Origin: an uncultured bacterium
GTDB lineage: Bacteria; Patescibacteriota; JAHJAL01
Direction of reading: 5' to 3'
DNA: 64,000 nt
Assembly (NCBI GenBank): GCA_938004065.1
Contig: CALKWM010000039.1
Span: forward strand, 1,313 to 65,312
The notes under the pieces: generated by a model
Databases searched by the model: none
The model's input: the letters and a program-made list of their open reading frames with translations, nothing else
What the model was told of the DNA's origin: nothing
Part shown: positions 949 through 63,741 of the stretch, piece by piece
Layout: the number at the start of each line of letters is the position of its first letter
How positions within the stretch are numbered: position 1 is the stretch's first letter
Made by a program: the position numbers and the translations under genes

Positions 949-2208
949 TTATTTCTTACTACTCAACTGCCCGCACGCTCCGCCAATATCCGCTCCCATC
1001 GCCACTCGAACGGCTACCGGTACTCCCAGTTTATTTAATTCATCTTTAAATCTATTGACCCGAAAGTTATTCGGTTTTTTCATATTTAATTTATTTATCG
1101 CTCCCACTACCTCGGGAGCGCCCCTTTGGGGCTTCCCGCTCCTCCTCGGCAAGGAGGAGAAGCAAACGCAACCATTCTCTTTTTCAGTGGTGGAAAGTTC
1201 AAGGCAATTCCCCTCCTCGCAGGAGGATGGGCAACAAAGCCCGTCAGGGCGTATGGGGGTGGTGGTTTTGGTTGGCGGATTGTATGGGATTAAATTAACG
1301 AAAAACTGGTGATCGTACAAAATTTCCGCCAATTTTTTCGCTTGTTTTAGACTATCATTTAATCCCTCGATCAAGATATATTCATAACTTACTCTTCGGC
1401 TGGTTTGTTTGGAATACTCTCGGCAGACTTTCAATAATTCTTTGATCGTATTTGCCTTTGCCACATTGGGCATCAATTTCTCTCTTAACTCTTGATTTGG
1501 AGCATGCAAACTAATCGCCAGCCCAATATGCGGAAATTGCTCGAGAAATTTTTTGAGCGGTTCGATATATCCGCTGGTTGATACGGTAATCTTGCGTTTA
1601 CCTAATCCGAACATATGGTCATCGGTCAAAATTTCCACCGCTCTCGACACATTATTCAAATTCAACATCGGTTCGCCCATTCCCATAAATACGATATTAT
1701 TGATTGTATTTCCAGTTGAAAAGGTATTTCCCCTCCTTTCCAAGGAGGGGTGGTCCGATTTTCGGACCGGGGTGGTTTTTTCCAATTTCCGTGCGAAATA
1801 CAACACCTGATCAACAATCTCTTTGGCGGTTAAATTTCGTTTAAATCCCATCGCGCCGGTGGCGCAAAATTTACATCCCACCGGACAACCCGACTGGCTG
1901 GAAACACAAACCGTATTGCGTCCTTCGTGCATCATCAACACCGATTCGATCAGATTTCCATCCTCCAGTTTAAACAAAACTTTGATCGTGTCTGATTTAT
2001 CGCTTATTCTCTCGCTCACCAATTCCAAATCACTCAATTTTACGTTGAGTTTCAAATAATTCCGCACTTCTTTGGGCAAACTGGTCGCTTGCTCCCAATC
2101 GTGGATCAATTGTCTGAAAATAGCATGATTGATCTGCTTGCTTCTGAATTTCGGCCATCCGATTTGTTGTACTATCCGTTGGAACATTTTTCGTCTATCA
2201 ATTATCAA
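949..2208 (-). CDS. rlmN: 23S rRNA/tRNA adenine C2-methyltransferase RlmN (radical SAM), carrying two in-frame insertions.
   Basis: CPVGCKFCATG radical-SAM CxxxCxxC. NIVFMGMGEP motif. C-terminal MGADIGGACGQL matches the RlmN/Cfr C-terminus with its second catalytic Cys. Length 419 aa is above the usual ~350-390 because of extra segments. Confidence 0.85.
   Translation of the reverse strand: MIIDRRKMFQRIVQQIGWPKFRSKQINHAIFRQLIHDWEQATSLPKEVRNYLKLNVKLSDLELVSERISDKSDTIKVLFKLEDGNLIESVLMMHEGRNTVCVSSQSGCPVGCKFCATGAMGFKRNLTAKEIVDQVLYFARKLEKTTPVRKSDHPSLERRGNTFSTGNTINNIVFMGMGEPMLNLNNVSRAVEILTDDHMFGLGKRKITVSTSGYIEPLKKFLEQFPHIGLAISLHAPNQELREKLMPNVAKANTIKELLKVCREYSKQTSRRVSYEYILIEGLNDSLKQAKKLAEILYDHQFFVNLIPYNPPTKTTTPIRPDGLCCPSSCEEGNCLELSTTEKENGCVCFSSLPRRSGKPQRGAPEVVGAINKLNMKKPNNFRVNRFKDELNKLGVPVAVRVAMGADIGGACGQLSSKK
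1100..1260. repeat. Cluster of four GC-rich palindromes inserted in frame in the rlmN C-terminal region: GCTCCC..GGGAGC, GCCCCTTTGGGGC, CTCCTCGGCAAGGAGGAG, CCTCCTCGCAGGAGGA.
   Basis: Seen directly. A GC-rich block sits in an AT-rich gene. It encodes about 50 extra aa (..PIRPDGLCCPSSCEEGNCLELSTTEKENGCVCFSSLPRRSGKPQ..) between the conserved LIPYNP and NNFRVNRF..GVPVAVR segments of RlmN. Confidence 0.5.
1722..1775. repeat. Second in-frame palindromic insertion in rlmN (CCCCTCCTTTCCAAGGAGGGG and GGTCCGATTTTCGGACC).
   Basis: Two adjacent perfect hairpins. They encode an extra ~15 aa (TPVRKSDHPSLERRGNT) just upstream of the MGMGEP motif, relative to the RlmN consensus. Confidence 0.5.
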
Positions 2209-6003: not shown

Positions 6004-6065
6004 TGTACCTCAAGCATGAAAGTTTTTATTTCATAATTATAATTACAACAAAAATAACAATTTGC

Positions 6066-6160
6066 AAGTAGTGCTAATTAATTTTCTTATCTGTGTCATC
6101 CTCGAATCGAAATCCGCCCAGGGCGGAGCTTCGATATCGGGGATCCAGACTATATTATTA
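6066..6160. mobile_element. Partial MITE copy: left TIR-like AGTAGTGCTAA plus the GC-rich core GTCATCCTCGAATCGAA..CCGCCCAGGGCGG..GGGGATCC; the right arm is missing.
   Basis: Sequence similarity to the complete copies at 28493-28660 and 56180-56323. Confidence 0.5.
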
Positions 6161-6374
6161 ATTTTTATTTAATACAACTCATCAATTTAGCATTTTTCAC
6201 CAATTAACAAATTAGTTAATATATCTTTTTAGTCAATAAAGACAGGCATTATCATCATTTACAACCAACTGTTATAATTGACTTTTATTTAAAACTTTGC
6301 TACATTCAAATGAAACGTCAAAACCGACGAAAAAAATAAAAGAAAATCAAAAATAAAAAGAAAATAAAAACCAA

Positions 6375-14605: not shown

Positions 14606-14757
14606 AAATGTCATCCTTCAACCTGATCCGCCTTGGGTGGACAAGCGATTCAGGATCCCGTAACAAATTTTCAATGATTAATTATCAAAATAAATCAAAT
14701 AGATCCTGAATTGCTCGAATATTCGCTTCGCTCATTTCGGGTTCAGGATGACAAATT
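14606..14757. mobile_element. MITE-like element of the same core family, with TIR GTCATCCT../..AGGATGAC and internal GGATCC-containing GC hairpins.
   Basis: TGTCATCCTTCAACCTGATCCGCCTTGGGTGG..GGATCCCG and ..GGGTTCAGGATGACA form inverted ends. The core resembles the other copies. Confidence 0.45.
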
Positions 14758-20198: not shown

Positions 20199-20248
20199 TC
20201 GATCCCCGATCCGGAGCACCCTACGGGCTTCCGGTCGAGAATGACAGA
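20199..20248. repeat. MITE-core-only fragment (GATCCCCGATCCGGAGCACCCTACGGGCTTCCGGTCGAGAATGACAGA).
   Basis: It shares the GGATCCCCGAT and CGAGGATGACAGA-like ends of the MITE core but lacks the AT-rich TIR arms. Confidence 0.4.
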
Positions 20249-23514: not shown

Positions 23515-23679
23515 TATTATGGCGATACAATGGCTTCACATTTTTATGATTTGTTTTAAAATGATATGACATGATTCTAGTCATAGTCACTATTTATTTC
23601 AGCGGTTTCTTGTGCTACTCTATAAGTAAAGATAACAAAAATAAAACTTTTTCCCTTGCATTTTTTAGGAAAAGTTTTC

Positions 23680-24924
23680 ATGAAAAATTTATATAAAACC
23701 ATAATTACTCTGATCATCATCCCGGTAATTTTTTTATTGTCCCCAGCCAAAATCCTGGCATACAAAGATTTACCGATCTCCGATTCGGCAACAACTAAAT
23801 ACATCTATCGTTTTTGGAGCCCTGTTTTCAAGGGTCATTTTTTCACCATGGACCATGCCGAAGCCAATCGAGTGGCCAACGAGGACAGTAACTGGAATTT
23901 TGAACAGATTGCCTACAGCGCCTATGCCATGCAATCTGAAGCAACCTTGCCCGTTTATCGTTTTTGGAGTCCGGTATTTCATGGACATTTTTATACCATC
24001 AATCCGGAAGAATGGATGCGAGTCAAAGACACCGATTCCAACTGGAATTACGAATGGATCGCCTATTATGCATATCCACCAACCTATACCGGTGAAGCCA
24101 AAAATGTTTATCGTTTTTGGAGTCCCGTTTTTCTCCATCACTTTTTTACTATCGACGAAGAGGAGATGAAGCGTGTCCGTGATACCGATCCCAATTGGGA
24201 CTACGAGGGAATCGCCTTCAAAGTCCCGCCGGGTGACACCAATCAGACAATCACCGGTGATGAGAAAAAGCTGATTGAAAGCGAAACCGCCGCTATCCAA
24301 GTCGATGAAATTAGCGATGTAACCAGTCAATACCCGGCTCAGGCCAAAACTGGAGAAAAACTTATCGCTACCAAAGTTTATCTACTTAATACCGGTCAGG
24401 ATCCAATTGATTATAGTCTGTATGATTTTATTTTAAAAAATCCGGAAAATGGCCAAACCTACCAACCTCAACCCATCGCCGAACCGGTTTTGGTTGGCGG
24501 TAAACTTTCACCCGGGGAAAGTGTTGAAGGTAATCTCACGTTTTCCATCCCGACCGATTTAAACAATCCCGTTCTGCAATACTCGAGCGACAACATGGAG
24601 ATAAAAAACAATCGAATCGAAGTCAATCTGGATATCACCCCCAGCGTCGTCATCATTTCCAGCGGTGTCATAACGGACCAATTTTCTTCCCAAAAAATCG
24701 TCGGTACGGTCAAAAACAATACCAAAACTCCGGTTAGACACGTCAAAATAACCGCCAGTTATTTTGATGAATCTATGGAACAAATCGGCGAAAATTTTAG
24801 TTATGCCGAAAAAGCCAGTATCGATTTTCTCCAACCCGGCGATACCGCCGATTTCAAAATCTGGTACTCGAGCAACCCATCTGTCAAGTACTATGAATTA
24901 ACTCTAAACTGGCAGACAAACTAG
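23680..24924 (+). CDS. Secreted protein with three tandem ~50-aa repeats (YRFWSPVF.GHF.T...SNWN.E.IAY) and a C-terminal Ig-like/DUF4352-like region.
   Basis: Signal peptide. Three repeats visible by eye. The repeat resembles the YRFYNxxTGxHFYT...GWxYEGIAFY repeat family (DUF5648-like); that family assignment is from memory. The start was chosen at the internal Met MKNLYKT. Confidence 0.55.
   Translation: MKNLYKTIITLIIIPVIFLLSPAKILAYKDLPISDSATTKYIYRFWSPVFKGHFFTMDHAEANRVANEDSNWNFEQIAYSAYAMQSEATLPVYRFWSPVFHGHFYTINPEEWMRVKDTDSNWNYEWIAYYAYPPTYTGEAKNVYRFWSPVFLHHFFTIDEEEMKRVRDTDPNWDYEGIAFKVPPGDTNQTITGDEKKLIESETAAIQVDEISDVTSQYPAQAKTGEKLIATKVYLLNTGQDPIDYSLYDFILKNPENGQTYQPQPIAEPVLVGGKLSPGESVEGNLTFSIPTDLNNPVLQYSSDNMEIKNNRIEVNLDITPSVVIISSGVITDQFSSQKIVGTVKNNTKTPVRHVKITASYFDESMEQIGENFSYAEKASIDFLQPGDTADFKIWYSSNPSVKYYELTLNWQTN
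23797..24250 (+). repeat. Coding tandem repeat, 3 units of ~147-153 bp.
   Basis: TATCGTTTTTGGAG(C/T)CC recurs at 23806, 23953 and 24106. Confidence 0.7.
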
Positions 24925-28413: not shown

Positions 28414-28492
28414 AAAATTAGCAAAAAGTCAATAGTTTTTTAAATTAATATAACCCATTTAACACTTACGCGTCTAATTAAAAAGAGATAAG

Positions 28493-28660
28493 TTAAATAA
28501 TGAGTAGTGCTAATTTATTTTCTTATCTGTCATCCTCGAATCGATCCGCCTTGCCTGCCCGCCTTGGGTGGGGGCGGAGCTTCGATAACTTGTCCGCCTC
28601 GGGTGGATCGGGGATCCATACCATATTTCTTATTATTATTTAGCACCACTCATTAAATAA
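28493..28660 (+). mobile_element. Complete MITE (~168 bp): 20-bp TIRs TTAAATAATGAGTAGTGCTAA / TTAGCACCACTCATTAAATAA flanking the GC-rich hairpin core CTGTCATCCTCGAATCGA..CCGCC..GGCGG..CGGGGATCC.
   Basis: The TIRs match with one mismatch. The internal palindromes are perfect. Related copies occur at 6066, 14606, 36564, 55066, 56180 and 63623. Confidence 0.7.
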
Positions 28661-28720
28661 TAAAAAAATACTAATCAATTCTTTTTTGATCAGTATTTAT
28701 CTTTTATTAATATCAAACAT

Positions 28721-36548: not shown

Positions 36549-36563
36549 ATCAAATCAGTATTG

Positions 36564-36690
36564 TTAATAATGAGTAGTGCTAAATAAAAATAAGAAATAT
36601 GGTATGGATCCCCGATATCGAAGCTCCGCCCTGGGCGGATTTCGATTCGAGGATGACAGATAGGAAATTAATAAGCACTACTCATTAATT
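36564..36690 (-). mobile_element. MITE copy (~127 bp, short variant) in inverted orientation.
   Basis: TIRs TTAATAATGAGTAGTGCTAA / TTAATAAGCACTACTCATTAA. Core GGATCCCCGATATCGAAGCTCCGCCCTGGGCGGATTTCGATTCGAGGATGACAG is the reverse complement of the core in the 6066 copy. Confidence 0.7.
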
Positions 36691-37591: not shown

Positions 37592-37767
37592 TCATATCCC
37601 CTCCTACAAAATTTTTTTAATAATTCGATAGCTTGGTATAATTTAACGAAAAATTTGTCCAAAAGCAATGTTTTGTTGATGATTATTGATGAATGTTAAA
37701 AAGTTGGTCTTGATATAATTAAAGGTATAATACAAACAGTGATTATTTGTTCTAAAAATTTTTTCAA

Positions 37768-38115
37768 ATGTCCAACATCAAAAACCTAACCCAAAAATTA
37801 ATAAATTTCCGCGACGCGCGAGATTGGAAACAGTTCCACAAACCCAAAGATATGGCTATTTCTCTCTCGCTGGAAGCTTCCGAATTATTGGAACATTTTC
37901 AATGGAAAAGTGAGCAAGAAATTGAAGAGTATTTGAAAGATCATAAAAATGATCTGGCCGATGAACTGGCGGATGTTCTAAATACTTTGCTGATGATTTG
38001 CTACGACCTTGATATCAATATCATCGAAGCTTCAGAAAAGAAATTGATCAAAAACAATTTGAAATATCCGGTGGAGAAAGCGAAGGGAAAACATACGAAG
38101 TATAGCAAGTTGTAG
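37768..38115 (+). CDS. MazG-like nucleotide pyrophosphohydrolase (small all-alpha NTP-PPase).
   Basis: FRDARDWKQFH..SLEASELLEHFQW..ELADVL has the EExxE/D metal-binding pattern of MazG-like/HisE-type NTP-PPases. It is about 80% identical to the paralog at 40796..41143. Confidence 0.65.
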   Translation: MSNIKNLTQKLINFRDARDWKQFHKPKDMAISLSLEASELLEHFQWKSEQEIEEYLKDHKNDLADELADVLNTLLMICYDLDINIIEASEKKLIKNNLKYPVEKAKGKHTKYSKL

Positions 38116-38295
38116 AGGGATTAAGGCAAAACACGATTTTTTAAAATATAGTTTTCCAGCTTTATTATTCGCAAATATTTTTCAAAGTTAAATTTACAGT
38201 CTTAAAAATATATGCAAATTGTTATTTTTAAAATGATTGATGCTAAATTGGATATTATACCGGCTACTGAACAATATTTCAAATACTTACCAGAT

Positions 38296-39178
38296 GAGTA
38301 ATATCAAGCACTTGGAACATTGGATATTAGATAAGATAGTAAATTAGCTGGTTTTGAAACAATTTCTTTGTAGTTGAATCTAGCTAGAAATTCTTGCAGA
38401 TATTCTGATAGTTTTTCTTTAGTGACATGATGATAAATTCTTCGAAGCATAGTTTTAAGTAAAGCCCATACTCTTTCAATAGCTGATGAATATTTTAACT
38501 GCCAACGATCATGGTATTCAATTCTGTGGCCATAACCATACCATTCAATATCAATGTAGCTTAAGAATCCATCAGTAGTAATTAGACTGTCAGTTAATAT
38601 ATTATCTGTTAAAAACTTTTCTACTATTCCTTGTTCTCTGGTTTCGACAATCTCTAAGCAGATGTGATCAAACTCCCGATTAACAGCTCCAATAATTACC
38701 GATTGGTTACCATTTCTTCTTTTACCAATAAAACATTCATCAACAATAATATCACCACCTAACATCAAATCATCTCGCGGTAAGTTCTTTCTTAAGTGTG
38801 AATAAATTCTCCTAATTGATGGATATGACACTTCAATTAAATCTTGGGCTATTCTTAAAGGAACCTTCTCGCTAAAACAATGGATAGCTTTTAGTATTTG
38901 TCTGATTGTTAATTTGGAATACTTGAAGCCTAACGATATTCTAAGACTGAATTTATAACGGCATTTTCGACACCAATACCGATTAGATAGTTGTCTAACA
39001 TATCTGATTCTGCCACATCTCGGACATTTGATTTTAGACAAATACTTTTTCTTTACTAATTTAACAGCTTGTTTTTCATCAAGAAGTTTAATAAATTTAG
39101 ACATAGGAACAGATTAGATGATTAAGATGTATGATATTTTAATTATTTAACATCTGTTCCAATTTCTTTATATAACTC
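38296..39178 (-). mobile_element. IS1595-family insertion sequence (883 bp) with imperfect ~25-bp TIRs and an 8-bp target-site duplication TACCAGAT.
   Basis: Left end GAGTAATATCAAGCACTTGGAACA; reverse complement of the right end GAGTTATATAAAGAAATTGGAACA. TACCAGAT lies directly outside both ends, at 38288-38295 and 39179-39186. Confidence 0.75.
38304..39104 (-). CDS. IS1595/ISXO2-like DDE transposase with an N-terminal zinc ribbon.
   Basis: CPRCG..CRKCRYKF zinc ribbon, then a DDE region (VDECFIGKR..TDGF..YGYGHRIEYH). Confidence 0.75.
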   Translation of the reverse strand: MSKFIKLLDEKQAVKLVKKKYLSKIKCPRCGRIRYVRQLSNRYWCRKCRYKFSLRISLGFKYSKLTIRQILKAIHCFSEKVPLRIAQDLIEVSYPSIRRIYSHLRKNLPRDDLMLGGDIIVDECFIGKRRNGNQSVIIGAVNREFDHICLEIVETREQGIVEKFLTDNILTDSLITTDGFLSYIDIEWYGYGHRIEYHDRWQLKYSSAIERVWALLKTMLRRIYHHVTKEKLSEYLQEFLARFNYKEIVSKPANLLSYLISNVPSA

Positions 39179-39417
39179 TACCAGATGACCAAGAAATTAA
39201 TAATAACTAGTCAATTATTAATCTACAATTTAATCAAACAAAACCGGCTAATTTGCGTTGGCTGGTTTTTTTATGCAGTTATAATTTTGTAGTTAAATAA
39301 TTTTTTTCCAAATAAATCAGGATCGATCAACGTAGGTTATAATTAAATTGTCCGACCCAACAATCATTACAAGCTCAATAGTTACTTAACTGACTCGAAA
39401 ATTTTAGAAGAAAACAA

Positions 39418-39920
39418 ATGAAAAAAATTACCGTCAATGACAAAATGCAGTCAAATTATTCCTATCTACTCACCGAGCCGATGGGAAAAAATTTTGACCC
39501 GCGTTTTAAACCGGAGCTGACGCCCAAAGAAATGCTGGCGATGGGAATATTTTGTGGGCGATATATGCCGATTGCGTAAATGAATTTCCCAAAAACTGGT
39601 TCATCAAGGCCAAGTTTGCCAAAGAAAAACGCGACTGCACCCTCAATTTTTTCCGGGTCAACGCCAGTATGCCTTTGTCTTACTGGGAGAAAAAGGGTTG
39701 GATTTATCCGGAAGATCCTCGGGGTTGGTTTCAATGGTATTGCCGATATTTTATGGGTCGCCGAATACCGGTGGAAGATGACCGGCAGATCAAACGCTGG
39801 ATGCAAATGAAAAGACACATCTCCCAGATCAAACGTAATTGTGTAACCGGAGATTGGGACTGTCGCACCAAACAACGGCAGGCGCTCCTGTATTGGGCGT
39901 ACGACTCGAGGAGGTATTAG
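39418..39920 (+). pseudogene. Frameshifted conserved hypothetical gene (..GIFCGRYM then shifts by one frame to DCVNEFPKNWF..) in a GC-rich foreign block.
   Basis: One ORF runs 39418-39579 (MKKITVNDKMQ..LAMGIFCGRYMPIA*). An ORF in another frame runs 39552-39920. Joined across a 1-nt shift near 39565 they read as one protein; the flanking amino-acid pattern suggests continuity. Confidence 0.45.
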
Positions 39921-40005
39921 AATAGATATTTTTTAAGAGATATTTGCAACCGGATAAATGATAAAATTTAGATAGAATCAATTTTTTAAATATTATAAAA
40001 ATATT

Positions 40006-40788
40006 ATGAACAAAATGTATTCAAGAGTGGCCGCCATCATTGCCTTTATCGTCATGGTCGTGCTTAACTATCTGGCGGTCTCACTCCCGCTGGGTGGTCG
40101 CGACACCGGCGCTATTTCCGATGCTTATCCCAATCTGTTCGCCCCGGCGGGATACGCTTTCTCGATCTGGGGACTGATCTATACCCTGCTGGCGATCTAT
40201 GTTGTCTATCAGCTAGTGCGGGGAAACAAACTGACCGATCAAATCAATCGGATATTTATCATCAACGCCTTATTCAATGCCGGCTGGCTCATCGCCTGGC
40301 ACTACGATGTGATCTGGCTGTCGGTTATCATCATGCTCGGTCTGCTCATCACTCTGATCAAAATCGCTGATTTATTGAAAGTGCAAAAACTGACCAAAGC
40401 CGAACACTGGCTGGTCCGCTTGCCTTTTAGTATTTATTTCGGCTGGATCACGGTGGCGACGATTGCCAATGTGACGATACTCTTGGTCAGTCTGGGTTGG
40501 AATGGTTTTGGCCTGTCGGAAGTTTTCTGGACGGTGGCGATATTGCTGGTCGGCACGCTGATCGGCACCTGGCGGACCATCCTTGACCGTAACATCCCCT
40601 ACGCACTGGTGCTGATCTGGGCCTACGGCGCGATCCTGGCCAAGCATCTCTCCGGCGGCGAATTCGCCGGCCAATATCCGGCGGTGATTTACGTGGTTGT
40701 GTTTTGTCTGGTGGTTTTTGGAGGGAGTATGATCTATGTGACAGGGAAAAATTTGAGGGTGGGAAGTAGGGGGAGAGATTTAATTTAA
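40006..40788 (+). CDS. TspO/MBR-like tryptophan-rich membrane protein; GC-rich, likely acquired.
   Basis: FAPAGYAFSIWGLIYTLLAIYVVYQ, several WxxxW-type aromatic motifs, and 5-7 TM helices. GC content is visibly higher than in the neighbouring sequence. Confidence 0.45.
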   Translation: MNKMYSRVAAIIAFIVMVVLNYLAVSLPLGGRDTGAISDAYPNLFAPAGYAFSIWGLIYTLLAIYVVYQLVRGNKLTDQINRIFIINALFNAGWLIAWHYDVIWLSVIIMLGLLITLIKIADLLKVQKLTKAEHWLVRLPFSIYFGWITVATIANVTILLVSLGWNGFGLSEVFWTVAILLVGTLIGTWRTILDRNIPYALVLIWAYGAILAKHLSGGEFAGQYPAVIYVVVFCLVVFGGSMIYVTGKNLRVGSRGRDLI

Positions 40789-40795
40789 TCAAAAT

Positions 40796-41143
40796 ATGAA
40801 AAATATCGATGATCTGACCCAAAAAATTATCACCTTCCGCGATGCGCGGGATTGGAAGCAATTTCACAACCCCAAAGACTGTGCCATCTCGCTTTCTTTG
40901 GAAGCCAGTGAAGTGCTGGAGCATTTTCAATGGAAAAGCGAGAAAGAAATTGAAGATTATTTGAAAGTTCATAAAGACGATCTGGCGGAAGAACTGGCCG
41001 ATGTTTTCAATTATTTGCTGTTGATGTGCCATGATCTGGAGATTGATATTATGGAGGCATCGGAAAAGAAGCTAATACAAAACAATTTGAAATATCCGGT
41101 AGAGAAAGCGAGAGGGAGGCATACGAAGTATAGTGAGTTGTAA
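40796..41143 (+). CDS. MazG-like nucleotide pyrophosphohydrolase (paralog of 37768..38115).
   Basis: Same motifs. The protein is about 80% identical to the other copy. Confidence 0.65.
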   Translation: MKNIDDLTQKIITFRDARDWKQFHNPKDCAISLSLEASEVLEHFQWKSEKEIEDYLKVHKDDLAEELADVFNYLLLMCHDLEIDIMEASEKKLIQNNLKYPVEKARGRHTKYSEL

Positions 41144-41186
41144 AATTAATACATTAGTTTAATACCTTTACAGAAATTAATAATAA

Positions 41187-41705
41187 ATGATCAAAAAAGT
41201 TAAAATACAGAAAAGTGAGAAGATAAATATTTATATCGATGGCGCCAATCTTGATAAAGGCATCAAGGATTTGGGTTGGAATTTGGATTATAAAAGATTT
41301 TATCGCTGGTTGAAAGATAAATATAAATTTAAAAATATCTATTTGTTTATCGGGCTGGTGCCCAGATTTAAGGATTTATATAAATATTTGCAAGAGATTG
41401 GTTATGTCTTGGTGTTCAAAGAAACAACCAGTGACGGTGATGGTAACGTGAAAGGCAATTGTGATGCAGATTTGGTATTAGCAGTGAGCAGAGATTTTTA
41501 TGAAGACAAATTTGATAAATCAATAATTGTTTCAAGTGATGGTGATTATGCTAGTATGATTAAATTTTTGAAAGACAAGAAGGCTATAAAAATATTATTA
41601 TCACCGAACAATAAATGCTCGATTTTACTCAAGCGTACCGGAGTGCCGATTTCCTATCTCAATTATCAAAAAAGAAAAATTCAGCAAAATAGAAAAAACC
41701 CCTAA
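41187..41705 (+). CDS. NYN-domain (LabA-like) putative ribonuclease (divergent paralog of 35461..36054).
   Basis: NIYIDGANLDKG, GNCDADLVL and VSSDGDY are NYN motifs. Confidence 0.65.
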   Translation: MIKKVKIQKSEKINIYIDGANLDKGIKDLGWNLDYKRFYRWLKDKYKFKNIYLFIGLVPRFKDLYKYLQEIGYVLVFKETTSDGDGNVKGNCDADLVLAVSRDFYEDKFDKSIIVSSDGDYASMIKFLKDKKAIKILLSPNNKCSILLKRTGVPISYLNYQKRKIQQNRKNP

Positions 41706-41859
41706 TAGAGACGGAACTCTAGCAGGGTTTTTTTCGTAGTGATTGGTTTTATTATATGAAAATTGGGATGGTTGGTCAAGAAAGGTAAATATATTTAAGA
41801 AATTTAAATTTATTCCAAGAATTGTTCAATAAATATTTGAGCGAATACAAAGGTTAAAT

Positions 41860-43137
41860 TATGTCCAAAAAAGAAGTACAAACTAGAATTAAGGTAAATA
41901 AACTACTCGAAGAAACCGGGTGGCGGTTTTTTGATAGCGAAACATGGCCGACCAATATCCGGCGGTTATTTATGCAGTTGTGTTTTGTCTGCTCGTTTTT
42001 GGGGGGAGTATAATTTATGTGATAGGGAAAAATGCGAGGGTGGGGAGGTAGATTCCAAGAAAGACTTATCAAAATTAAATTGAGTCAAAACCCTCTTACG
42101 TCCACCTTTGGAGGGAAGCGACACTAACGATATTATTTAAATTAACTATATCCTGTATGGCGCGAATTATTATAAAAAACAACTAGTACTCTTTATATGA
42201 TTTTGATAACGAAGCGGAATTTGAAAAAGCGGTTATTGAAAATCAGAAGTATATTTTCGGAAAAGATTCAATTTATATTGACGTAAAAAAAAGAATAGGA
42301 CGGGATAATCATCGCGGGATTCCTGATGCATTTTTAATTGATTTCTATGATACCAATAAACCGCAACTATATATAATTGAAAATGAGATTGCATCTCATG
42401 ACGTGTATTCAAATATTACTGAGCAAATCGCGCGTTTTGGCACTAGTATTGTTTCTTCTGCAAACGAAATACGCAATATATTAATCAAGGCAGTTGAAAG
42501 CGAACCAAAAACAATAAAAGAAATTGAGCGGTATTTACTGCAAACGGTATTTAAGAATATCACAGAACTAATGATTTTTCTCACCGAAGAAAATGATATT
42601 AAAATCGTAGTTGCAATCAATGAAATTACAACCGATCTGAATCTTGCTTTTAAGATTTTTAAGAATCCGCCGGACTTAGTTTTATTGCAACGCTATATAT
42701 ACGGAAATGATGTTTCATACTATTACGAACCGATGCGTGAAGAAATTGAAGATATTGAAACAGAGAAAAGCAAAACTGGCGAAGCCGTAGATTTCAATAC
42801 AGTTGTTTGTGCTGCATTAGAAGACGGTTTCAAACACGCATATAAGGAAAATAATGCTTGGTGGGCTATTCGGCTTTCACAAGAAGCGAGAGAAAAATTG
42901 AAGTATTTAGCGATTTATGAAAAAGCGCCGGTTGCGCATATTAGTCATTATGCAGAAATTGATAGGATTGAACCATACAAAGATACTGGTAAATACATTC
43001 TGTTTTTAAAAAATAAAAAAACAGTAAAACCGATCAAGCTTGGCACAGGAAAAAAAGGTGAAGCACCACAAGCGCCAAGATATACTACGCTTGAAAAACT
43101 ATTAAACGCTGATTCAATAAGTGAATTATGGAGTTGA
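41860..43137 (+). pseudogene. Disrupted PD-(D/E)xK / HsdR_N-like nuclease-family gene. Its N-terminus (41860-~41940) and body (42187-43137) are in the same frame, separated by a ~245-bp insertion that includes a duplicated TspO 3' fragment.
   Basis: N-terminal MSKKEVQTRIKVNKLLEETGWRF matches the ETRxKxIDxxLxxxGW start of HsdR_N/Mrr-type restriction proteins. The body has GIPDAFLIDF..LYIIENE. Stops lie between the two parts. Confidence 0.45.
41941..42050 (+). repeat. ~110-bp duplicated copy (about 85% identical) of the 3' end of the TspO-like gene (40666-40775).
   Basis: Aligned by eye: GGCC(G)ACCAATATCCGGCGGT(T/G)ATTTA..GTGTTTTGTCTG..GGGAGTAT.ATTTATGTGA.AGGGAAAAAT..GAGGGTGGG.AGGTAG. Confidence 0.6.
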
Positions 43138-43289
43138 TAATTAATAATATAAAGAATCATAAGAATACTATTATCAAATAATTTGGATGTTCTTGCTATT
43201 CCGAAAAATTTTTGTAAGATTAGGTATAACGAAGTATCCACTTGTTTCTATCGGTATTTTATAATGTTCTTTTTTAATAAGATATTAAT

Positions 43290-44888
43290 ATGTCTAAATT
43301 TAAAGATATTCCTCTAATCGATAGGCCAAGAGAAAGATTTTTAGTAAAAGGCCCAGATGTGCTTTCAAAAAGCGATCTTTTAGCGATTTTACTTGGTAGT
43401 GGAATCAAGGGGAAAAATGTAAAACAACTTTCCGAACAAATCATCAGGAAATTTAGCAACAAATTTTTAGATATTACTGTTGATGATCTTTTAGAAATTC
43501 CTGGAATTGGAAAAGCGAAGGCATTGCAGATTGTTTCTGCTCTCGCTTTGGTTAAAAGATTTTACAATGAACTTGGACCAAAAGATAATGTTGTTTTGTC
43601 CGTGCAAGACGCCGTTTCACTAACTTCTGAAATTAGAAACAAGAAAAAGGAATATTTAGTTTGTCTTTATCTGAATGCCCGAAATGTTTTGCTAAAAAAA
43701 GAAATTATCTCAATCGGAACGCTTGATAAAAGTTTAATTCATCCGCGAGAAATATTTGGCCCCGCCGTAGAATTAAGAGCGGCAGGAGTTGTTCTTTTGC
43801 ATAATCACCCGTCTGGCGATGTTGAGCCAAGCAAGCAGGATATTGAAGTAATCAATAAAATTCTTGAGGCCGGCAAAATTATGGGGGTGAATGTTATTGA
43901 TTTTATTATTGTTAGTGAAAATGACTTACACAGCATTTTTCAGTCATCACAGAAAGAAATCACGCATTATGTATCTGACGGGGGGCAGAATTCACTTTTT
44001 GATCTGCTTGAAACCGAACAGCAAACCTATACTCCGACAATAAAAAAAATACATAAAGTGTATTTTTACCCTGAAAGCAGAGCAAAGGCGGGTCGCTTTC
44101 AACTACAAAATAGACGCTATTTAGGAAATAAATACAAATTACTTGGATTTATTGAAGATATTATAAACGAAAAATGCAACGGCTTTAGTGTTTTTTGCGA
44201 TATTTTTGCGGGAACAGGAGTTGTCGCGGAACGATTTAACGAGAAAAATATCAAAGTGATTGCTAACGATTTTTTATCGAGCAATTTTATACCACTTAAA
44301 GCATTTTTAGGAACATCAAAAATAGACTTTGAGGAGATAGAGCACAAAATAAATTTACTCAATGAACTAAAAGCAACAGATGACAATTATTTTTCTGAAA
44401 ACTTTGGCGATACATATTTTACTTTAGAAAACGCAAGAAAAATTGGCGCAATTAGAGAAAAGATAAATAAGTTAAGCAATAATGAGGACGAAGAAGCGGT
44501 TTTAATTGCCTCATTGCTTTATGCGGTGGATAAAGTGGCAAATACCGTAGGGCATTATGACGCTTTCCGTAAAAAATTAGACACGGTGCAACCTTTGCGG
44601 CTTTTAGTGCCTGATTTTGAGGCGGAAAACAATATAAATAACGAAATATACAAGGAAGATGCCAATCAACTAATCAGAAAAATAAGTTGCGATGTTTTAT
44701 ACATTGATCCACCCTACAATTCACGCCAGTATTCAGATGCTTATCACCTTTTAGAAAATCTTGCTGCTTGGAAAAAACCGATCGTGCATGGCAAGGCGAA
44801 AAAAATGGATCGTTCGCATATCAAAAGCGATTACTGCTTGCAATCTGCGGCCAAAGCCTTTGCTGATTTAAATTATAACTATAATTGA
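43290..44888 (+). CDS. Fusion protein: N-terminal RadC-like JAB/MPN domain plus C-terminal D12-class (Dam-like) N6-adenine DNA methyltransferase.
   Basis: RadC signature HNHPSGD (JAMM) with upstream helix-hairpin-helix IPGIGKAKAL. C-terminal half has YLGNKYKLL, SAM motif I DIFAGTGVV and motif IV LYIDPPYNSRQYS. Confidence 0.7.
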   Translation: MSKFKDIPLIDRPRERFLVKGPDVLSKSDLLAILLGSGIKGKNVKQLSEQIIRKFSNKFLDITVDDLLEIPGIGKAKALQIVSALALVKRFYNELGPKDNVVLSVQDAVSLTSEIRNKKKEYLVCLYLNARNVLLKKEIISIGTLDKSLIHPREIFGPAVELRAAGVVLLHNHPSGDVEPSKQDIEVINKILEAGKIMGVNVIDFIIVSENDLHSIFQSSQKEITHYVSDGGQNSLFDLLETEQQTYTPTIKKIHKVYFYPESRAKAGRFQLQNRRYLGNKYKLLGFIEDIINEKCNGFSVFCDIFAGTGVVAERFNEKNIKVIANDFLSSNFIPLKAFLGTSKIDFEEIEHKINLLNELKATDDNYFSENFGDTYFTLENARKIGAIREKINKLSNNEDEEAVLIASLLYAVDKVANTVGHYDAFRKKLDTVQPLRLLVPDFEAENNINNEIYKEDANQLIRKISCDVLYIDPPYNSRQYSDAYHLLENLAAWKKPIVHGKAKKMDRSHIKSDYCLQSAAKAFADLNYNYN

Positions 44889-45751
44889 CTATGAAAAAAT
44901 CAAATTCAATTATCTTATTTAAACAAAAACAAGTTAGGCGTATTTGGGACGAAGAAAAAGAACTTTGGTATTTTTCGATCGTAGATGTGGTTGAAATATT
45001 GACGGATAGTCCAAGACCTAGAAAATACTGGAACGCCTTAAAAACCAAGCTAAAAGAGGAAGGAAGCGAGTTGTCCCAAAAAGTGGGACAACTGAAATTA
45101 GAGGCGGCTGATGGGAAAAAATACCTCACAGATGTAGCTGACACAGAAACTCTTTTGAGATTAATTCAATCGATACCATCGCCTAAAGCTGAACCCTTTA
45201 AACTTTGGCTGGCAAAAGTTGGCTATCAAAGGATTGAAGAAACCGAAGATCCTGAACTTGCCATTGATAGAGCGATGAAAACTTACTTGCAAAAAGGATA
45301 TTCGAAAGAGTGGATAAATCAACGGTTAAAAAGCATTGAGGTTAGAAAAGAGCTTACTGACGAATGGCAAATTAGAGGCATGAAAGAGGGATTGGAATAC
45401 GCAATATTGACGGATGAAATCACAAAAGCTTGGGCTGATAAAAATGTTAGAGATTACAAAAAATTTAAAGGATTGAAAAAAGAAAATTTGCGAGACAATA
45501 TGACAAATTTGGAATTGGTGCTCAATATGTTGGCTGAGGTTTCTACCGCAGAAATATCCAAAAAGCAAAAACCAAAAGGATTGGAAGAAAACAAGGGAGT
45601 AGCTCGCAAAGGTGGGTTTGCCGCTAAAAAGGCAAGACTTGAAATTGAAAAACAAACAGGTGAAAGGGTTGTTAGCTCAAAAAATGCAAAACATTTACAA
45701 GTAAAGGCAAAAAAATTTAAATCTTTGCCTAAAGAAAATAATCAAGAATAA
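44885..45751 (+). CDS. Bro-N domain protein, DinD-like (DNA-damage-inducible protein D family).
   Basis: N-terminal RRIWDEEKELWYFSIVDVVEIL is Bro-N-like. The C-terminal half resembles E. coli DinD (GLKKxN..NMxxxELxxN..). Confidence 0.5.
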   Translation: MTMKKSNSIILFKQKQVRRIWDEEKELWYFSIVDVVEILTDSPRPRKYWNALKTKLKEEGSELSQKVGQLKLEAADGKKYLTDVADTETLLRLIQSIPSPKAEPFKLWLAKVGYQRIEETEDPELAIDRAMKTYLQKGYSKEWINQRLKSIEVRKELTDEWQIRGMKEGLEYAILTDEITKAWADKNVRDYKKFKGLKKENLRDNMTNLELVLNMLAEVSTAEISKKQKPKGLEENKGVARKGGFAAKKARLEIEKQTGERVVSSKNAKHLQVKAKKFKSLPKENNQE

Positions 45752-45753
45752 TC

Positions 45754-46671
45754 ATGTCAATACAAATTCTATCAAATTTGAACTATCCAATTGGCAATAT
45801 AATTAGCCAAGAATTACAGAACGCAAATTCGGCAAAAATCGCTGTCGCTTTTTTGAAGTATTCGGGCGTAAAGGTTATCGAGAAGCCATTGGATAATTGC
45901 TTGAGAAATAATGGCAATATTGAAATTATTGCAGGACTTGATTTTAAAACAACTGACCCGCAATCAATGCATTATTTAATACAACTGCAAAAACAAACGC
46001 CAAATTTGAAATTTTATTGTTATGGCGACAAGGATGAGAACAAGACCGATGTTGTTTTTCACCCCAAAATTTATTTGTTTGAAAAAGCACGAGAGACTAC
46101 TGGCATTGTTGGAAGCACGAATTTGACACGAGGTGGTTTGCTTTCTAATTTTGAAGTAAATGTTGTAATTAAAGAGACAAAACCACTTTATTTTTCGCAG
46201 CTTCAAGCAATTTATAATTTCGTAAAATTTACGGATTCTGTTTTCTCTCCAGACGAAGAATATTTAGCGGGATACTCCGATGTTTATAAAGCATTTTTGC
46301 AAAACGAACAGAAAGCAACAAAAGACAAAGGCATTCAAAATGTTGTTCGTCAAATAAATAAGCGAGCTGAATCTTTGCCCGGAACAGTGCCATCAGTCAA
46401 AAGCTTGATTATTGATGTTATTAAAAAAGGAAAAGAACAAGGCGTGGAATTTGTGTCATTACAGACAATTTATGAAGAAGTTGAAAAAATTGTCGAAGAG
46501 AAAAAACTAAATTACAAAATGGATACTTTTAGAAACTCCATCAGAGGGGAACTAAACAAACACGAAACACATAGCAAGCACCCTGATAATATGGATTTAT
46601 TTATCCGATCATTAGAACGAAAGGGATTTTATTCATTAACCGATAAAGGTAAAAATTATGAAGGGCGATAA
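45754..46671 (+). CDS. PLD-superfamily nuclease (HxK..GSxN) with a ~160-aa C-terminal domain; candidate BfiI/NgoAVII-like restriction endonuclease.
   Basis: HPKIYLFEKARETTGIVGSTNLT carries the HxK(x)4D..GSxN phospholipase-D nuclease signature. A DNA methyltransferase lies immediately downstream. Confidence 0.6.
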   Translation: MSIQILSNLNYPIGNIISQELQNANSAKIAVAFLKYSGVKVIEKPLDNCLRNNGNIEIIAGLDFKTTDPQSMHYLIQLQKQTPNLKFYCYGDKDENKTDVVFHPKIYLFEKARETTGIVGSTNLTRGGLLSNFEVNVVIKETKPLYFSQLQAIYNFVKFTDSVFSPDEEYLAGYSDVYKAFLQNEQKATKDKGIQNVVRQINKRAESLPGTVPSVKSLIIDVIKKGKEQGVEFVSLQTIYEEVEKIVEEKKLNYKMDTFRNSIRGELNKHETHSKHPDNMDLFIRSLERKGFYSLTDKGKNYEGR

Positions 46672-46794
46672 AAATATTCAACAACGAATTGCCTGTCTGG
46701 AGGCAAAAATTGAACACAAAATCAATTATTCTTCTGGAAGCGTGGATGACGAAAGCCGAATTGATGATTTATCTTGCGAACTTTTAAAACTTGA

Positions 46795-47541
46795 AGAGGC
46801 GATTGCATAAAAATACTAAACGAAAAAATTGATGAAAGATCAGTTGAATTGATTTTTGCCGATCCGCCCTACAATCTTTCGGGAAACGGTTTGAAATGGG
46901 AAGGCAATAAAACAGGTGGTAATTGGTACATGGTCAATGAGGAATGGGACAAAATGACTGCTCCTGAATATATGCAATTTACCCGCAAATGGATCGGGGG
47001 CTGTCATAAAGTTTTGAAAGATAACGGCTCAATTTATATTTCTTGCACTTATCACAATCTTGCAGAGGTGATGATCGTTCTCAAACAACAGGATTTTAAG
47101 ATTAACAATGTCATTGTTTGGCGAAAGACAAATGCTATGCCGAATATGACAAAAAGAGTTTTTACACACTCCACGGAATTTGTCGTCTGGGCCGTAAAAG
47201 GCAAAAAATGGATTTTCAATTATGCAGAATTAAAAAAGATAAATCCTGAAAAACAAAAGGATGGTTCAGAAAAACAAATGAGAGATGTCTGGTCGCTTCC
47301 TTTGGTCCAAGGAAAAGAAAGGTTAAGAGGAAAAGACGGACGCGCTTTGCATCCAACTCAAAAGCCAGAGGAAATGTTAAAACGAATAATTATCGCTTCC
47401 TCAAACAAAGGCGACACTGTTTTAGATCCTTTTTTAGGTAGCGGAACAACGGCCTTTGTTGCTAAAAAATTAAGACGAAATTGGATCGGCATTGAAAAAA
47501 GCGGAAAATATGTTGATATGGCAAATAAAAGAATGAAATAG
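46795..47541 (+). CDS. Beta-class N6-adenine/N4-cytosine DNA methyltransferase (N6_N4_Mtase). The N-terminus is unclear: the first canonical start is TTG at 46849, the conserved GDCIKILNEKIDERSVELIFADPPY begins right after a TGA, and a possible frameshift links it to the ATG at 46658.
   Basis: Motif IV DPPY near the N-terminus, then HPTQKP and FLGSGTT (motif I), which is the beta-class order. The frame was analysed by hand around 46780-46800. Confidence 0.7.
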   Translation, partial: RGDCIKILNEKIDERSVELIFADPPYNLSGNGLKWEGNKTGGNWYMVNEEWDKMTAPEYMQFTRKWIGGCHKVLKDNGSIYISCTYHNLAEVMIVLKQQDFKINNVIVWRKTNAMPNMTKRVFTHSTEFVVWAVKGKKWIFNYAELKKINPEKQKDGSEKQMRDVWSLPLVQGKERLRGKDGRALHPTQKPEEMLKRIIIASSNKGDTVLDPFLGSGTTAFVAKKLRRNWIGIEKSGKYVDMANKRMK

Positions 47542-47951
47542 TCAGGGCTATTTTTCTACTAGCGGCCATTTATAAGATCATTGAGCGAATCAACATCTTT
47601 TTCCTCGAGTAGTGTGCCAAGATGCATATCACTCCTGACACCTAGTGCTACATCATATCGTTTTTCGATAGTACCAACATGTGTATCTGATCATTTTTGG
47701 CGATGGTGACCGTTCTCATTACGAGTGCGGTATCCCTTCATGCCTGAGCATCATTTTTCATGATAACCTCCAGCATTACAGCGAGTGGACTAATCTTCGG
47801 GACAGTTAATCTGCCAGTAGTTATCAGATGTGTCAACGAATAAAGTCTTAATCGCCCTGTTCAATTATTATATTTCCACAACACTATTGTTAATTTTTGA
47901 TATAATTTTTATATAATATTATTACAAGATAGCGAAAGATTGGAGGTAAAA

Positions 47952-49035: not shown

Positions 49036-49100
49036 CTGGATCCCCGCCCGCCGCGGCGGGCGGACAGGCCCTATTCCGCCCGAGGCGAATCGAGGATGAT
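49036..49100. repeat. GC-rich palindrome CCGCCCGCCGCGGCGGGCGG plus a MITE-core-like fragment (GGATCCCC..CCGCCCGAGGCG..CGAGGATGA).
   Basis: Perfect 20-bp palindrome immediately after the msrA stop, carrying the core-end motifs of the MITE family. Confidence 0.45.
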
Positions 49101-49270
49101 ACATAAAAGAGAAAAATGCCCGTGAATTTTGGCATTATTTTGCTAATATTCACGGTAAATTGACTTTTTGGCGTGAATTATTAATTGGCGGAAAATTAAT
49201 CATGATTTAATTTTTTGTTTAATCCATATTAATTCTTCCTTGGTATAATTAAAGTGTCTTAGAATAAAAG

Positions 49271-55065: not shown

Positions 55066-55160
55066 TATAAGTAGTACTTGTGATTTTTTTATCTGTCATC
55101 CTCGAGTCGAAAGCGAGGAACGAGTGATTAGACATCGGGGATCCATTCCATATTTCATAT
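55066..55160. mobile_element. Partial/degenerate MITE copy (core GTCATCCTCGAGTCGAAAGCGAGGAACGAG..CATCGGGGATCC).
   Basis: Similarity to the core and left TIR region of the other copies. Confidence 0.5.
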
Positions 55161-56179: not shown

Positions 56180-56323
56180 TTAATGAGTAGTGCTAAATAA
56201 AAATAAGAAATATGGTATGGATCCCCGATCCGCCCGAGGCGGACAGGTTGTCTAATCGCTCGTTCCTCGCTTTCGACTCGAGGATGACAGATAAGAAAAT
56301 TAATTAGCATTACTCATTATTTA
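56180..56323 (-). mobile_element. Complete MITE copy (~144 bp) in inverted orientation, abutting the stop codon of the PEP-enzyme gene.
   Basis: TIRs TTAATGAGTAGTGCTAA / TTAGCATTACTCATTA. Core GGATCCCCGATCCGCCCGAGGCGGACAGG..CGACTCGAGGATGACAG. Confidence 0.7.
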
Positions 56324-63622: not shown

Positions 63623-63700
63623 CAATATTTTATGAGTAGTGCCAAATAGTTTTCTTATCTGTCATCCTTTTTCTTATTTACCTAGCACTTCTCATTATTT
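63623..63700. mobile_element. Degenerate MITE remnant (the TIR arms ATGAGTAGTGCCAA / TAGCACTTCTCAT are retained; the GC core is deleted).
   Basis: TTCTTATCTGTCATCC joins directly to TTTTTCTTATT between the TIR-like arms. Confidence 0.45.
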
Positions 63701-63741
63701 TGTCAAAATATTTTTAAATTATTTTTATAAATCATCTCCGT

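Follow-up and report, generated by a model that had tools for sequence, protein, structure and literature searches.

A miniature inverted-repeat transposable element family with an SRM-like hairpin core in a Patescibacteria genome

The window analysed here, a stretch of 64,000 nucleotides from a Patescibacteria metagenome-assembled genome (MAG), contains copies of a short intergenic element with terminal inverted repeats (TIRs), arm-less hairpin units, and one intact IS1595-family insertion sequence with the only transposase of the window (Table 1). Searches of the window with nhmmer profiles of the left and right arms yield six arm-bearing copies and no more (E-values 1e-11 to 1e-16), and six oriented copies align end to end in MAFFT. 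The three copies that a preliminary description had called full align over their whole length and are tied to further loci by mechanical repeat finding, which bears out the original claim of a multi-copy, intergenic, non-coding inverted-repeat element whose copies can be aligned. Words shared by the copies occur far more often in the window than shuffling predicts (TGTCATCCTCGARTCGA, 6 matches against 0.24 expected; ATCGGGGATCCATWCCATATTTC, 4 against 0; AATGAGTAGTGCTAA, 12 against 1.6), and a 49-nt repeat (D11) is 100% identical between 36568-36616 and 56181-56229. A further ~21 kb outside the window was read on the same contig (DAIUKQ010000004.1, 120 kb, assembly GCA_036848155.1, in which the window is 43026-107025; 85 kb in total). 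With the three flanking loci found there, in segments L002 and L005, these 85 kb carry nine arm-bearing loci. Copies are 64-154 bp long, with one dimer of 247 bp, all within the ~300 bp expected of a MITE (miniature inverted-repeat transposable element), and those at 6064, 55067, L002 12919 and L005 2838 are decayed. All are intergenic and non-coding, holding only spurious open reading frames (ORFs) of 28-49 aa in varying frames.

Table 1 Features of the window and its flanks, with the sequences flanking each testable copy
Feature	Coordinates	Strand	TIRs or ends	Core	Left / right flank	Flank match	Duplication coordinates
Full copy, 154 bp	28500-28653	+	ATGAGTAGTGCTAA / TTAGCACCACTCAT (13/14)	TGTCATCCTCGA...TCGGGGATCC; modules A (expanded) + C	TAAATA / TAAATA	6/6	28494-28499 and 28654-28659 (6 bp)
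Full copy, 116 bp	36570-36685	-	13/14	Module A, one long hairpin	GAATTA / TATTAA	3/6	
Full copy, 135 bp	56183-56317	-	13/14	Modules B+C	TAAATA / TAATTT	4/6	
Complete but decayed copy, 119 bp	6064-6182	+	GCAAGTAGTGCTAA / TTAATACAACTCAT	Module A	CAATTT / CAATTT	6/6	6058-6063 and 6183-6188
Degenerate copy	55067-~55181	+	Left degenerate, ATAAGTAGTAC; right lost	Module B intact; tail GGGGATCCATTCCATATTTC			
Internal-deletion derivative, 64 bp	63632-63695	+	Both present (11/14)	Linker and CTGTCATCC kept; hairpin lost	TATTTT / TATTTT	6/6	63626-63631 and 63696-63701
Diverged arm-bearing copy, outside window	L002 12919-13026				TATTTA / TATTAA	5/6	
Dimer, 247 bp, outside window	L002 14437-14683		Left unit without right TIR		AAATTT / AAATTT	6/6	
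Arm-bearing copy, outside window	L005 2838-2970				TAATCA / TATCAA	3/6	
Arm-less SRM-like unit, left of inverted pair	14609-14657	+		TGTCATCCT..CCTGA..TCAGGATC			
Arm-less SRM-like unit, right of inverted pair	14702-14753	-		TGTCATCCTGAA...TTCAGGATC			
Arm-less SRM-like unit, between convergent genes	20201-20246	-		TGTCATTCTCGA-CCGG..CCGG-ATCGGGGATC			
Arm-less SRM-like unit, two nested GC hairpins	49039-49101	-		TATCATCCTCGA...GGGGATCC			
Intact IS1595-family insertion sequence, only transposase in window	38296-39178	-	GAGTAATATCAAGC.../GAGTTATATAAAG...		8-bp duplication TACCAGAT		

The copy first reported as partial at 6066-6160 is in fact complete, with both TIRs and a perfect target-site duplication (TSD), and it shares an identical module A with the 36570 copy. 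Two other reported partial copies, at 55066-55160 and 63623-63700, do belong to the family and have different limits from those first given (Table 1). The 64-bp copy at 63632 keeps CTGTCATCC and is therefore a deletion derivative, not an ancestral empty frame. As originally noted, one copy abuts a stop codon: the left TSD of the 56183 copy lies directly 3′ of the TAA of a 707-aa PPDK_N/PEP-utilizers gene, with only these 6 bp between element and stop. At 36553-36567 a degenerate TIR-like 15-mer adjoins the 36570 copy and may be a remnant of an older one at this site.

The conserved TIR common to all copies is 14 bp long, ATGAGTAGTGCTAA, and the four best copies match it at 14/14, 13/14, 13/14 and 13/14 positions. 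The 20-bp arms proposed at first resolve into this TIR and a 6-bp AT-rich TSD; the consensus ends given then, TTAAATAATGAGTAGTGCTAA, take in one copy's TSD and flanking sequence, and the 'TTAAATA' tips of the copy placed at 28493 are likewise TSD and flank rather than TIR. Duplications had been expected to be TA/TAA-like; they are present, but are 6 bp long and AT-rich, perfect in 4/8 testable copies and imperfect in the other 4/8. With element boundaries at ATGAGT...ACTCAT and k=6, 39/48 flank positions match. Over all boundary offsets (-4 to +4) and duplication lengths (2-10) scanned, only shift 0 with length 6 yields four perfect matches of at least 5 bases, and when left flanks are paired anew with right flanks (20,000 permutations), the result never comes up to 39 matches or to four perfect pairs. 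The mean over these permutations is 27.7/48, the AT-rich target flanks raising background similarity, which shows that AT-rich targets are preferred. All 24 departures from the TIR consensus affect one arm, and none (0/24) is mirrored or compensated on the other. Such one-sided changes fit two protein-binding ends that decay independently and argue against a selected long stem. On the basis of the 14-bp TIRs, the 6-bp TSDs and the dispersed non-coding intergenic copies, the family is a non-autonomous DNA transposon, that is, a miniature inverted-repeat transposable element (MITE) of 64-154 bp.

Between the arms lies a GC-rich oriented hairpin of the form TGTCAT-stem...stem-ATCCATWCC. This core, CTGTCATCCTCGA...TCGGGGATCCATWCCATATTTC, is found in every arm-bearing copy except the 64-bp form, and its orientation relative to the arms is constant. 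The 8-bp closing stem, ATCCTCGA/TCGGGGAT, contains a T·G pair and so forms only on the TGTCAT strand, whose predicted fold is more stable than that of the complementary strand for RNA (-42.9 against -30.5 kcal/mol in one example) and DNA alike; predicted folds of whole copies are strong (z -5 to -8). Core units span 39-88 nt, with loops of 29-70 nt made of nested hairpins, and copies differ by whole modules, the observed cores being A, A+C, B, B+C, B′ and B′+C. Module A is a CCGCCC-AGG-GCGG hairpin on an ATCGA/TCGAT stem, and module C is an optional 20-nt segment, ACTTGTCCGCCTCGGGCGGA, that occurs in both arm subfamilies. All ten core units (five arm-bearing copies and four arm-less units in the window, together with the flank copies) read (T)GTCAT-stem...stem-C, one having ATCAT. 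Insertion of the core with an 8-bp TTTCTTAT duplication was considered and is weakened by the finding that ATATTT is the hairpin's own conserved tail in other organisms.

The core had been taken for a novel part of the MITE; its sequence instead points to a known hairpin class. The dRS3 repeat of Neisseria is part of a longer oriented 'NTS', CGTCATTCCCGCGMAVGCGGGAATCYRG, and NTS-like 'Ssn-related motifs' (SRMs) are spread across phyla (PMC11893778, Nat Commun 2025). NTS and SRM sequences are bound and cut as single-stranded DNA (ssDNA) by small GIY-YIG nucleases (SsnA), a function assigned to these hairpins only recently; binding depends most on the C that immediately follows the palindrome, and cleavage on the three bases upstream of it (PMC11893778). 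The window core carries an oriented TGTCAT before the stem and a C right after it, the positions reported as critical for SsnA. Matches to the right end of the core, ATCGGGGATCCATWCCATAT, in JGI metagenomes come from only two loci, L086 and L087, both of which are arm-less simple hairpins, TGTCATCCCCGA-(TTCGA or CCTGA, n5)-TCGGGGATCCATTCCATATTT, adjoining other GTCAT-stem-loop-stem-ATC units. Units at these two loci match the SRM pattern, and the ends of the window core are identical to them at 32-33/34 positions. A relative with a 67% identical PPDK carries TGTCATCCCGCAcctgaTGCGGGATCCAT.

The strict SRM pattern, HGTCWYN(0-2)YYVSBRHN(0-5)WNVSBRGN(0-2)RNCYNB (PMC11893778), matches once in L086, three times in L087, twice in L092 and five times in L094. 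It has no match in the window, L002 or L005, even with the loop relaxed to 90 nt, because a T stands in the 5′ stem arm of the window cores where A, C or G is required (CCTCGA against CCCCGA in strict SRMs, giving the T·G pair). This stem change and the swollen loop place the window core outside the published SRM definition, so that the GC core is best described as a derived SRM, not a MITE invention: the homology of its ends is established, its membership of the SRM class at most putative. Shared with NTS/SRM are the oriented (C/T)GTCAT immediately 5′ of a GC-rich closing stem of 8 bp, a C as the first base beyond the palindrome, an ATCCAT-type tail, and the dispersal of units, which also occur in inverted pairs. 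In contrast to NTS/SRM, whose loop is 0-5 nt, the window units have loops of 29-70 nt, most copies are embedded between transposon TIRs, and no ssnA-like gene was found nearby within the 85 kb. The class is defined by a hairpin-forming inverted repeat of 20-50 nt; the window units, at 39-88 nt with multi-hairpin loops, retain the 8-bp closing stem, which covaries between units (ATCCTCGA/TCGGGGAT against ATCCTGAA/TTCAGGAT). L094, a contig carrying capsid and protease genes, is of phage origin, and such hairpins thus also travel in phage genomes. A search of IMG/VR with two patterns gave one match on the same contig as L087, a phage; eight 18-mer matches in IMG/VR were discarded as chance, being without other features of the element.

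Given that the core is a derived copy of a known hairpin class, the arm-less units once listed as core-only fragments are independent hairpin units and not broken MITEs. Those at 20199-20248 and 49036-49100 had rightly been recognized as the same hairpin type as the core, and only their status as MITE fragments falls. The supposed degenerate MITE at 14606-14757 is a pair of arm-less units in inverted orientation, of which the 14702 unit has a stem, ATCCTGAA/TTCAGGAT, that differs from the stem of the MITE core by three compensated pairs. The 49039 unit sits 7 bp past msrA (ORF end 49032). A further reported member, at 2331-2365, consists only of two generic GC hairpins, TCCGCCCAAGGCGGA and TGCGCCTAGGGCGCA, without TGTCAT/GGATCC ends, and does not belong to the family; generic GC hairpins are enriched in the window (26 against 2.1 expected).

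No cognate transposase had been evident at the outset, and this stands for the 85 kb read. The IS1595-family element was rejected as the mobilizing partner since it has other TIRs and an 8-bp rather than a 6-bp TSD. Its ends and those of the MITE both have GAGTA/GAGTT near the tip, and it is an intact element with a fresh TSD in the same genome; however, the TIRs match at 8/12 positions, in an AT-rich context, and their tips do not line up, being shifted by 2 nt. Each assembly in which the IS1595 element occurs has a single copy of it. Pfam searches of called genes and our own scans found no autonomous element with MITE-matching TIRs in the 85 kb, and no GIY-YIG gene among its called genes and ORFs, where a crude motif scan was also negative; nor do the 85 kb contain a Y1_Tnp/RAYT gene. 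A genome with NTS/SRM repeats would be expected to encode an Ssn nuclease (GIY-YIG cd10448), in many cases with the motif on either side of its gene.

We think it reasonably likely that the family is a MITE with TIRs and a 6-bp TSD that was moved by a DDE-type transposase, and that its SRM hairpin was captured once as a passenger. Such a transposase, encoded elsewhere or lost, would bind the TIRs and move the element by cut-and-paste or by copying. One hairpin of the NTS/SRM class (TGTCAT-stem-loop-stem-ATCCATWCCATATTT) would have lodged between the arms before the family amplified; that this happened a single time is probable from the constant orientation of hairpin relative to arms, the one observation behind it. 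The loop may then have diversified as nested GC hairpin modules were gained, lost or exchanged, and one copy would have lost its hairpin by internal deletion. The hairpin would most likely be a passenger spread by the MITE and not the engine of its mobility.

A more ambitious proposal, which we consider speculative and rather unlikely, is that the DDE-type MITE serves as a dispersal vehicle for Ssn-target hairpins in this reduced genome of the candidate phyla radiation (CPR); alternatively, the MITE may recruit an Ssn-type nuclease through the hairpin for its own mobility. The Ssn study left open how SRM/NTS repeats multiply (PMC11893778). An SRM-like hairpin inside a TIR/TSD transposon provides a concrete, testable route by which Ssn-target hairpins could be multiplied. 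Were the MITE indeed the vehicle, that question would be answered for one lineage, and the element would seed ssDNA-cleavage sites, as control points of recombination or transformation, beside many genes. The nested modular growth of the loop also shows how motifs drift out of the published SRM pattern, so pattern-based SRM counts may be underestimates.

Mobility could instead reside in the hairpin, which would spread through ssDNA by means of an Ssn-type GIY-YIG or a REP/RAYT-like Y1 enzyme with the arms secondary, much as has been proposed for REP/BIME and NTS-ssnA-NTS units. The dispersal of arm-less hairpin units on their own is consistent with this, as are the nesting of hairpins within hairpins (module C, TGTCCGCCTCGGGCGGATC, is bounded by TGTC...ATC, and both arm subfamilies include copies with and without it), the strand asymmetry of stem pairing through G·T pairs, and the NTS-ssnA-NTS gene architecture, which is that of mobile elements such as insertion sequences (PMC11893778). 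We nevertheless regard a hairpin-driven spread as improbable, because the 6-bp direct duplications lie outside the AT-rich TIRs and not beside the hairpin, and the 85 kb contain neither a Y1 nor a GIY-YIG gene. Elements that transpose as ssDNA, the IS200/IS605 family among them, are not known to generate a TSD. The 63632 copy has TIRs and a perfect TSD without a hairpin, although loss of the hairpin before or after insertion would both be compatible with that arrangement.

An immobile fossil is an equally doubtful alternative to the DDE-type MITE. Here the diversity would stem from recombination, gene conversion and slippage, and the apparent TSDs from a strict preference for AT-rich targets or from chance. 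The 85 kb in view hold no transposase with matching ends, several copies are decayed (those at 6064, 55067, L002 12919 and L005 2838), the core is a mosaic of modules and the background similarity of the flanks is high. Against this, arm segments are 100% identical between some copies, as in the 49-nt D11 repeat, four TSDs are perfect, and the family was not found in the sampled loci of the nearest relatives.

By Gnd identity (78% aa), the nearest GTDB genome is titled 'Patescibacteria group bacterium', and those PPDK homologues that are named by their sources are mostly from Patescibacteria, the nearest being 74% and 67% identical. The composite is absent from the orthologous loci of these nearest relatives (Gnd 78%, PPDK 74%/67%), which are too distant for precise empty sites. 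An exact 21-mer across the arm/core junction has no match in 185,579 species-representative genomes, and the composite was not found outside this organism in species-representative genomes, JGI metagenomes, IMG/VR or the loci of relatives. A search with a 49-aa MITE-encoded peptide gave no matches, look-ups with ORFs called inside the copies found no other copies, and the hairpin sequences matched only unrelated primers in the full-text literature. The failure to find the family in the sampled loci of these relatives suggests a burst that was recent and confined to this lineage.

The orientation of the copies relative to neighbouring genes is mixed. The 6064 and 63632 copies are co-directional with their neighbours, the 28500 copy is antisense to both, the 36570, 56183 and 20201 units lie between convergent genes, and the 55067 and L005 2838 copies lie between divergent gene starts. 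The pgl-zwf junction, otherwise a tight operon, contains a 108-bp copy here compared with 9 bp and no element in a relative (L006; Gnd 78% identical). Orientations are also mixed on both sides of the GC-skew minimum, and a replication-strand bias was rejected accordingly. Most sites touch a gene 3′ end, and the copies had been suggested to act as terminators. That role is not supported: a terminator scan flags one inner hairpin in one copy and is at background overall (11 against 8.5), no T-run follows the hairpin stems, orientation is mixed, and two sites lie at divergent starts and one in the pgl-zwf junction. No copy matches an Rfam family at gathering score, the only such matches in the window being to tRNA-Tyr, and nothing across 28440-28720 scores better than E=1.3. 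Selected structured RNAs (terminators, mRNA stabilizers or small RNAs) rather than mobile DNA are therefore a very remote prospect, despite the strong folds of whole copies, the gene 3′ ends touched at most sites and the G·U pairs that favour one strand, given these orientations, terminator counts and Rfam searches, the interrupted pgl-zwf junction, the presence of TSDs and the want of any compensated TIR change. In view of the mixed orientation, the background-level terminator scan and the absence of Rfam matches, we treat effects on neighbouring genes as incidental.

The Correia elements of Neisseria are ~100-155 bp long, with 26-bp TIRs, a TA duplication and internal-deletion variants. Like these and other bacterial MITEs, the present family is of small size, has TIRs and target duplications, occupies intergenic AT-rich targets, occurs in long and internally deleted short forms, is non-coding and reaches a high copy density. 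Unlike the Correia elements, to which it is unrelated in sequence, it makes a TSD of 6 bp instead of 2 bp, has TIRs of 14 bp, harbours a hairpin repeat from another, independent class, and resides in a Patescibacteria MAG. Mosaic intergenic repeats are also known, as the BIMEs of Escherichia coli, pneumococcal BOX (boxA-boxB(n)-boxC) and neisserial NIMEs. The present family resembles them in its modularity, with constant ends and interchangeable hairpin modules (A, B, B′, with or without C), and in forming dimers (the L002 copy in Table 1), but those repeats are not known to have a TIR and TSD frame. In NIMEs, which are treated with dRS3 in PMC1797815 and PMC11893778, dRS3 hairpins flank a variable unit, whereas here the hairpin is inside and AT-rich TIRs are outside. 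Assignment to RAYT-associated REP/BIME was rejected, as the hairpin head is GTCAT, not GTAG, and Y1_Tnp is absent from the 85 kb. MITEs had been described before, as had mosaic hairpin repeats and SRMs; what is new is a MITE family with an SRM-like passenger, and the searchable literature yielded no description of a MITE in Patescibacteria/CPR.

Patescibacteria have small genomes in which, on the usual view, mobile DNA is scarce. A MITE density of ~1 per 9 kb that breaks short-read assemblies matters for the assembly and annotation of Patescibacteria MAGs. Gene callers place ORFs of 29-31 aa in the copies. A Logan contig from the same strain is 100% identical and both starts and stops inside copies, showing that the repeat interrupts short-read assembly.

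Perfect GC-rich hairpins with a stem of at least 6 bp number 26 across the whole window, against 2.1 in Markov simulations, an enrichment of approximately 12-fold. The motif TCCGCC-N3/4-GGCGGA recurs both within the MITE family and outside it, for example at 2327-2341. Hairpins are also found in coding sequence: the rlmN-like gene carries GC-rich hairpins inserted in frame, especially at 1100-1260 and 1731-1768 (examples are CCCCTCCTTGGAAAGGAGGGG and CATCCTCCTGCGAGGAGGGGAAT), through which the protein gains about 70 aa near its C terminus and in a loop. These insertions are reminiscent of the Rickettsia palindromic elements, which lie inside genes. Separately, ORF 23656-24924, encoding a DUF5648/DUF4352 protein, contains internal tandem repeats (23803-24217; three units of about 150 bp, 64-71% identical).

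MITE copies and the hairpin-bearing gene
Feature	Position	Strand	Remark
Dimeric MITE	L002 14437-14683 (contig 110410-110656)		Shortly beyond the window's right edge
Diverged MITE copy	L002 12919-13026		Occupies the pgl-zwf gap
rlmN-like radical-SAM gene	949-2208	-	Intact, 412-419 aa

The MITE loci on the same contig beyond the window include two in L002. The dimer consists of a left unit, which has core modules A and C but no right TIR, followed directly by a full unit that belongs to the other arm subfamily and has core B'; a perfect AAATTT/AAATTT duplication is present at the outermost flanks. The ATG of a 5'-nucleotidase gene directly adjoins the right TSD. The diverged copy fills a gap between pgl and zwf that is 9 bp in a relative (L006), and the final base of the stop codon of pgl is supplied by the first base of the copy. 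Within the window, a degenerate TIR-like 15-mer (36553-36567) adjoins the 36570 end of the MITE copy at 36570-36685, a second (38232-38246) lies 50 bp from the end of the IS1595-family IS, and the 17-mer AAAAATAACAATTTGCA is common, in inverted orientation, to the left flank of the copy starting at 6064 (6050-6066) and to 38213-38229. These sequences may be remnants of older MITE copies, or a favoured target.

The region 37700-47600, which includes the intact IS1595-family IS, resembles a mobile or defence island. Also present are duplicated MazG-like genes (37768-38115 and 40796-41143, 77% nucleotide identity), likewise duplicated NYN genes, and genes for a RadC-Dam fusion, a Bro-N protein, a PLD-family nuclease and an N4/N6 methyltransferase, as well as a 101-nt direct repeat (40666-40766 and 41947-42047, 86% identical). 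The cumulative GC skew of the window reaches its minimum at approximately 39-40 kb.

At 14609-14753, two SRM-like hairpins of inverted orientation are separated by a 44-bp AT-rich spacer. The pair is palindromic overall, with ends TGTCATCCT...AGGATGACA, and may represent, on a small scale, the SRM-gene-SRM arrangement reported for ssnA. Hairpins that fit the published SRM (Ssn-related motif) pattern strictly occur in other contigs. A 25.9-kb phage contig of 49.5% GC (L094/L087; IMGVR_UViG_3300020083_000066, Ga0194111_10001863) has five within 9 kb, among structural genes (capsid, XkdF-type protease). A simple SRM unit in another contig (L086 1805-1860) has one purP-like gene on either side and is flanked by direct CTAGAT repeats, a single case that may be due to chance.
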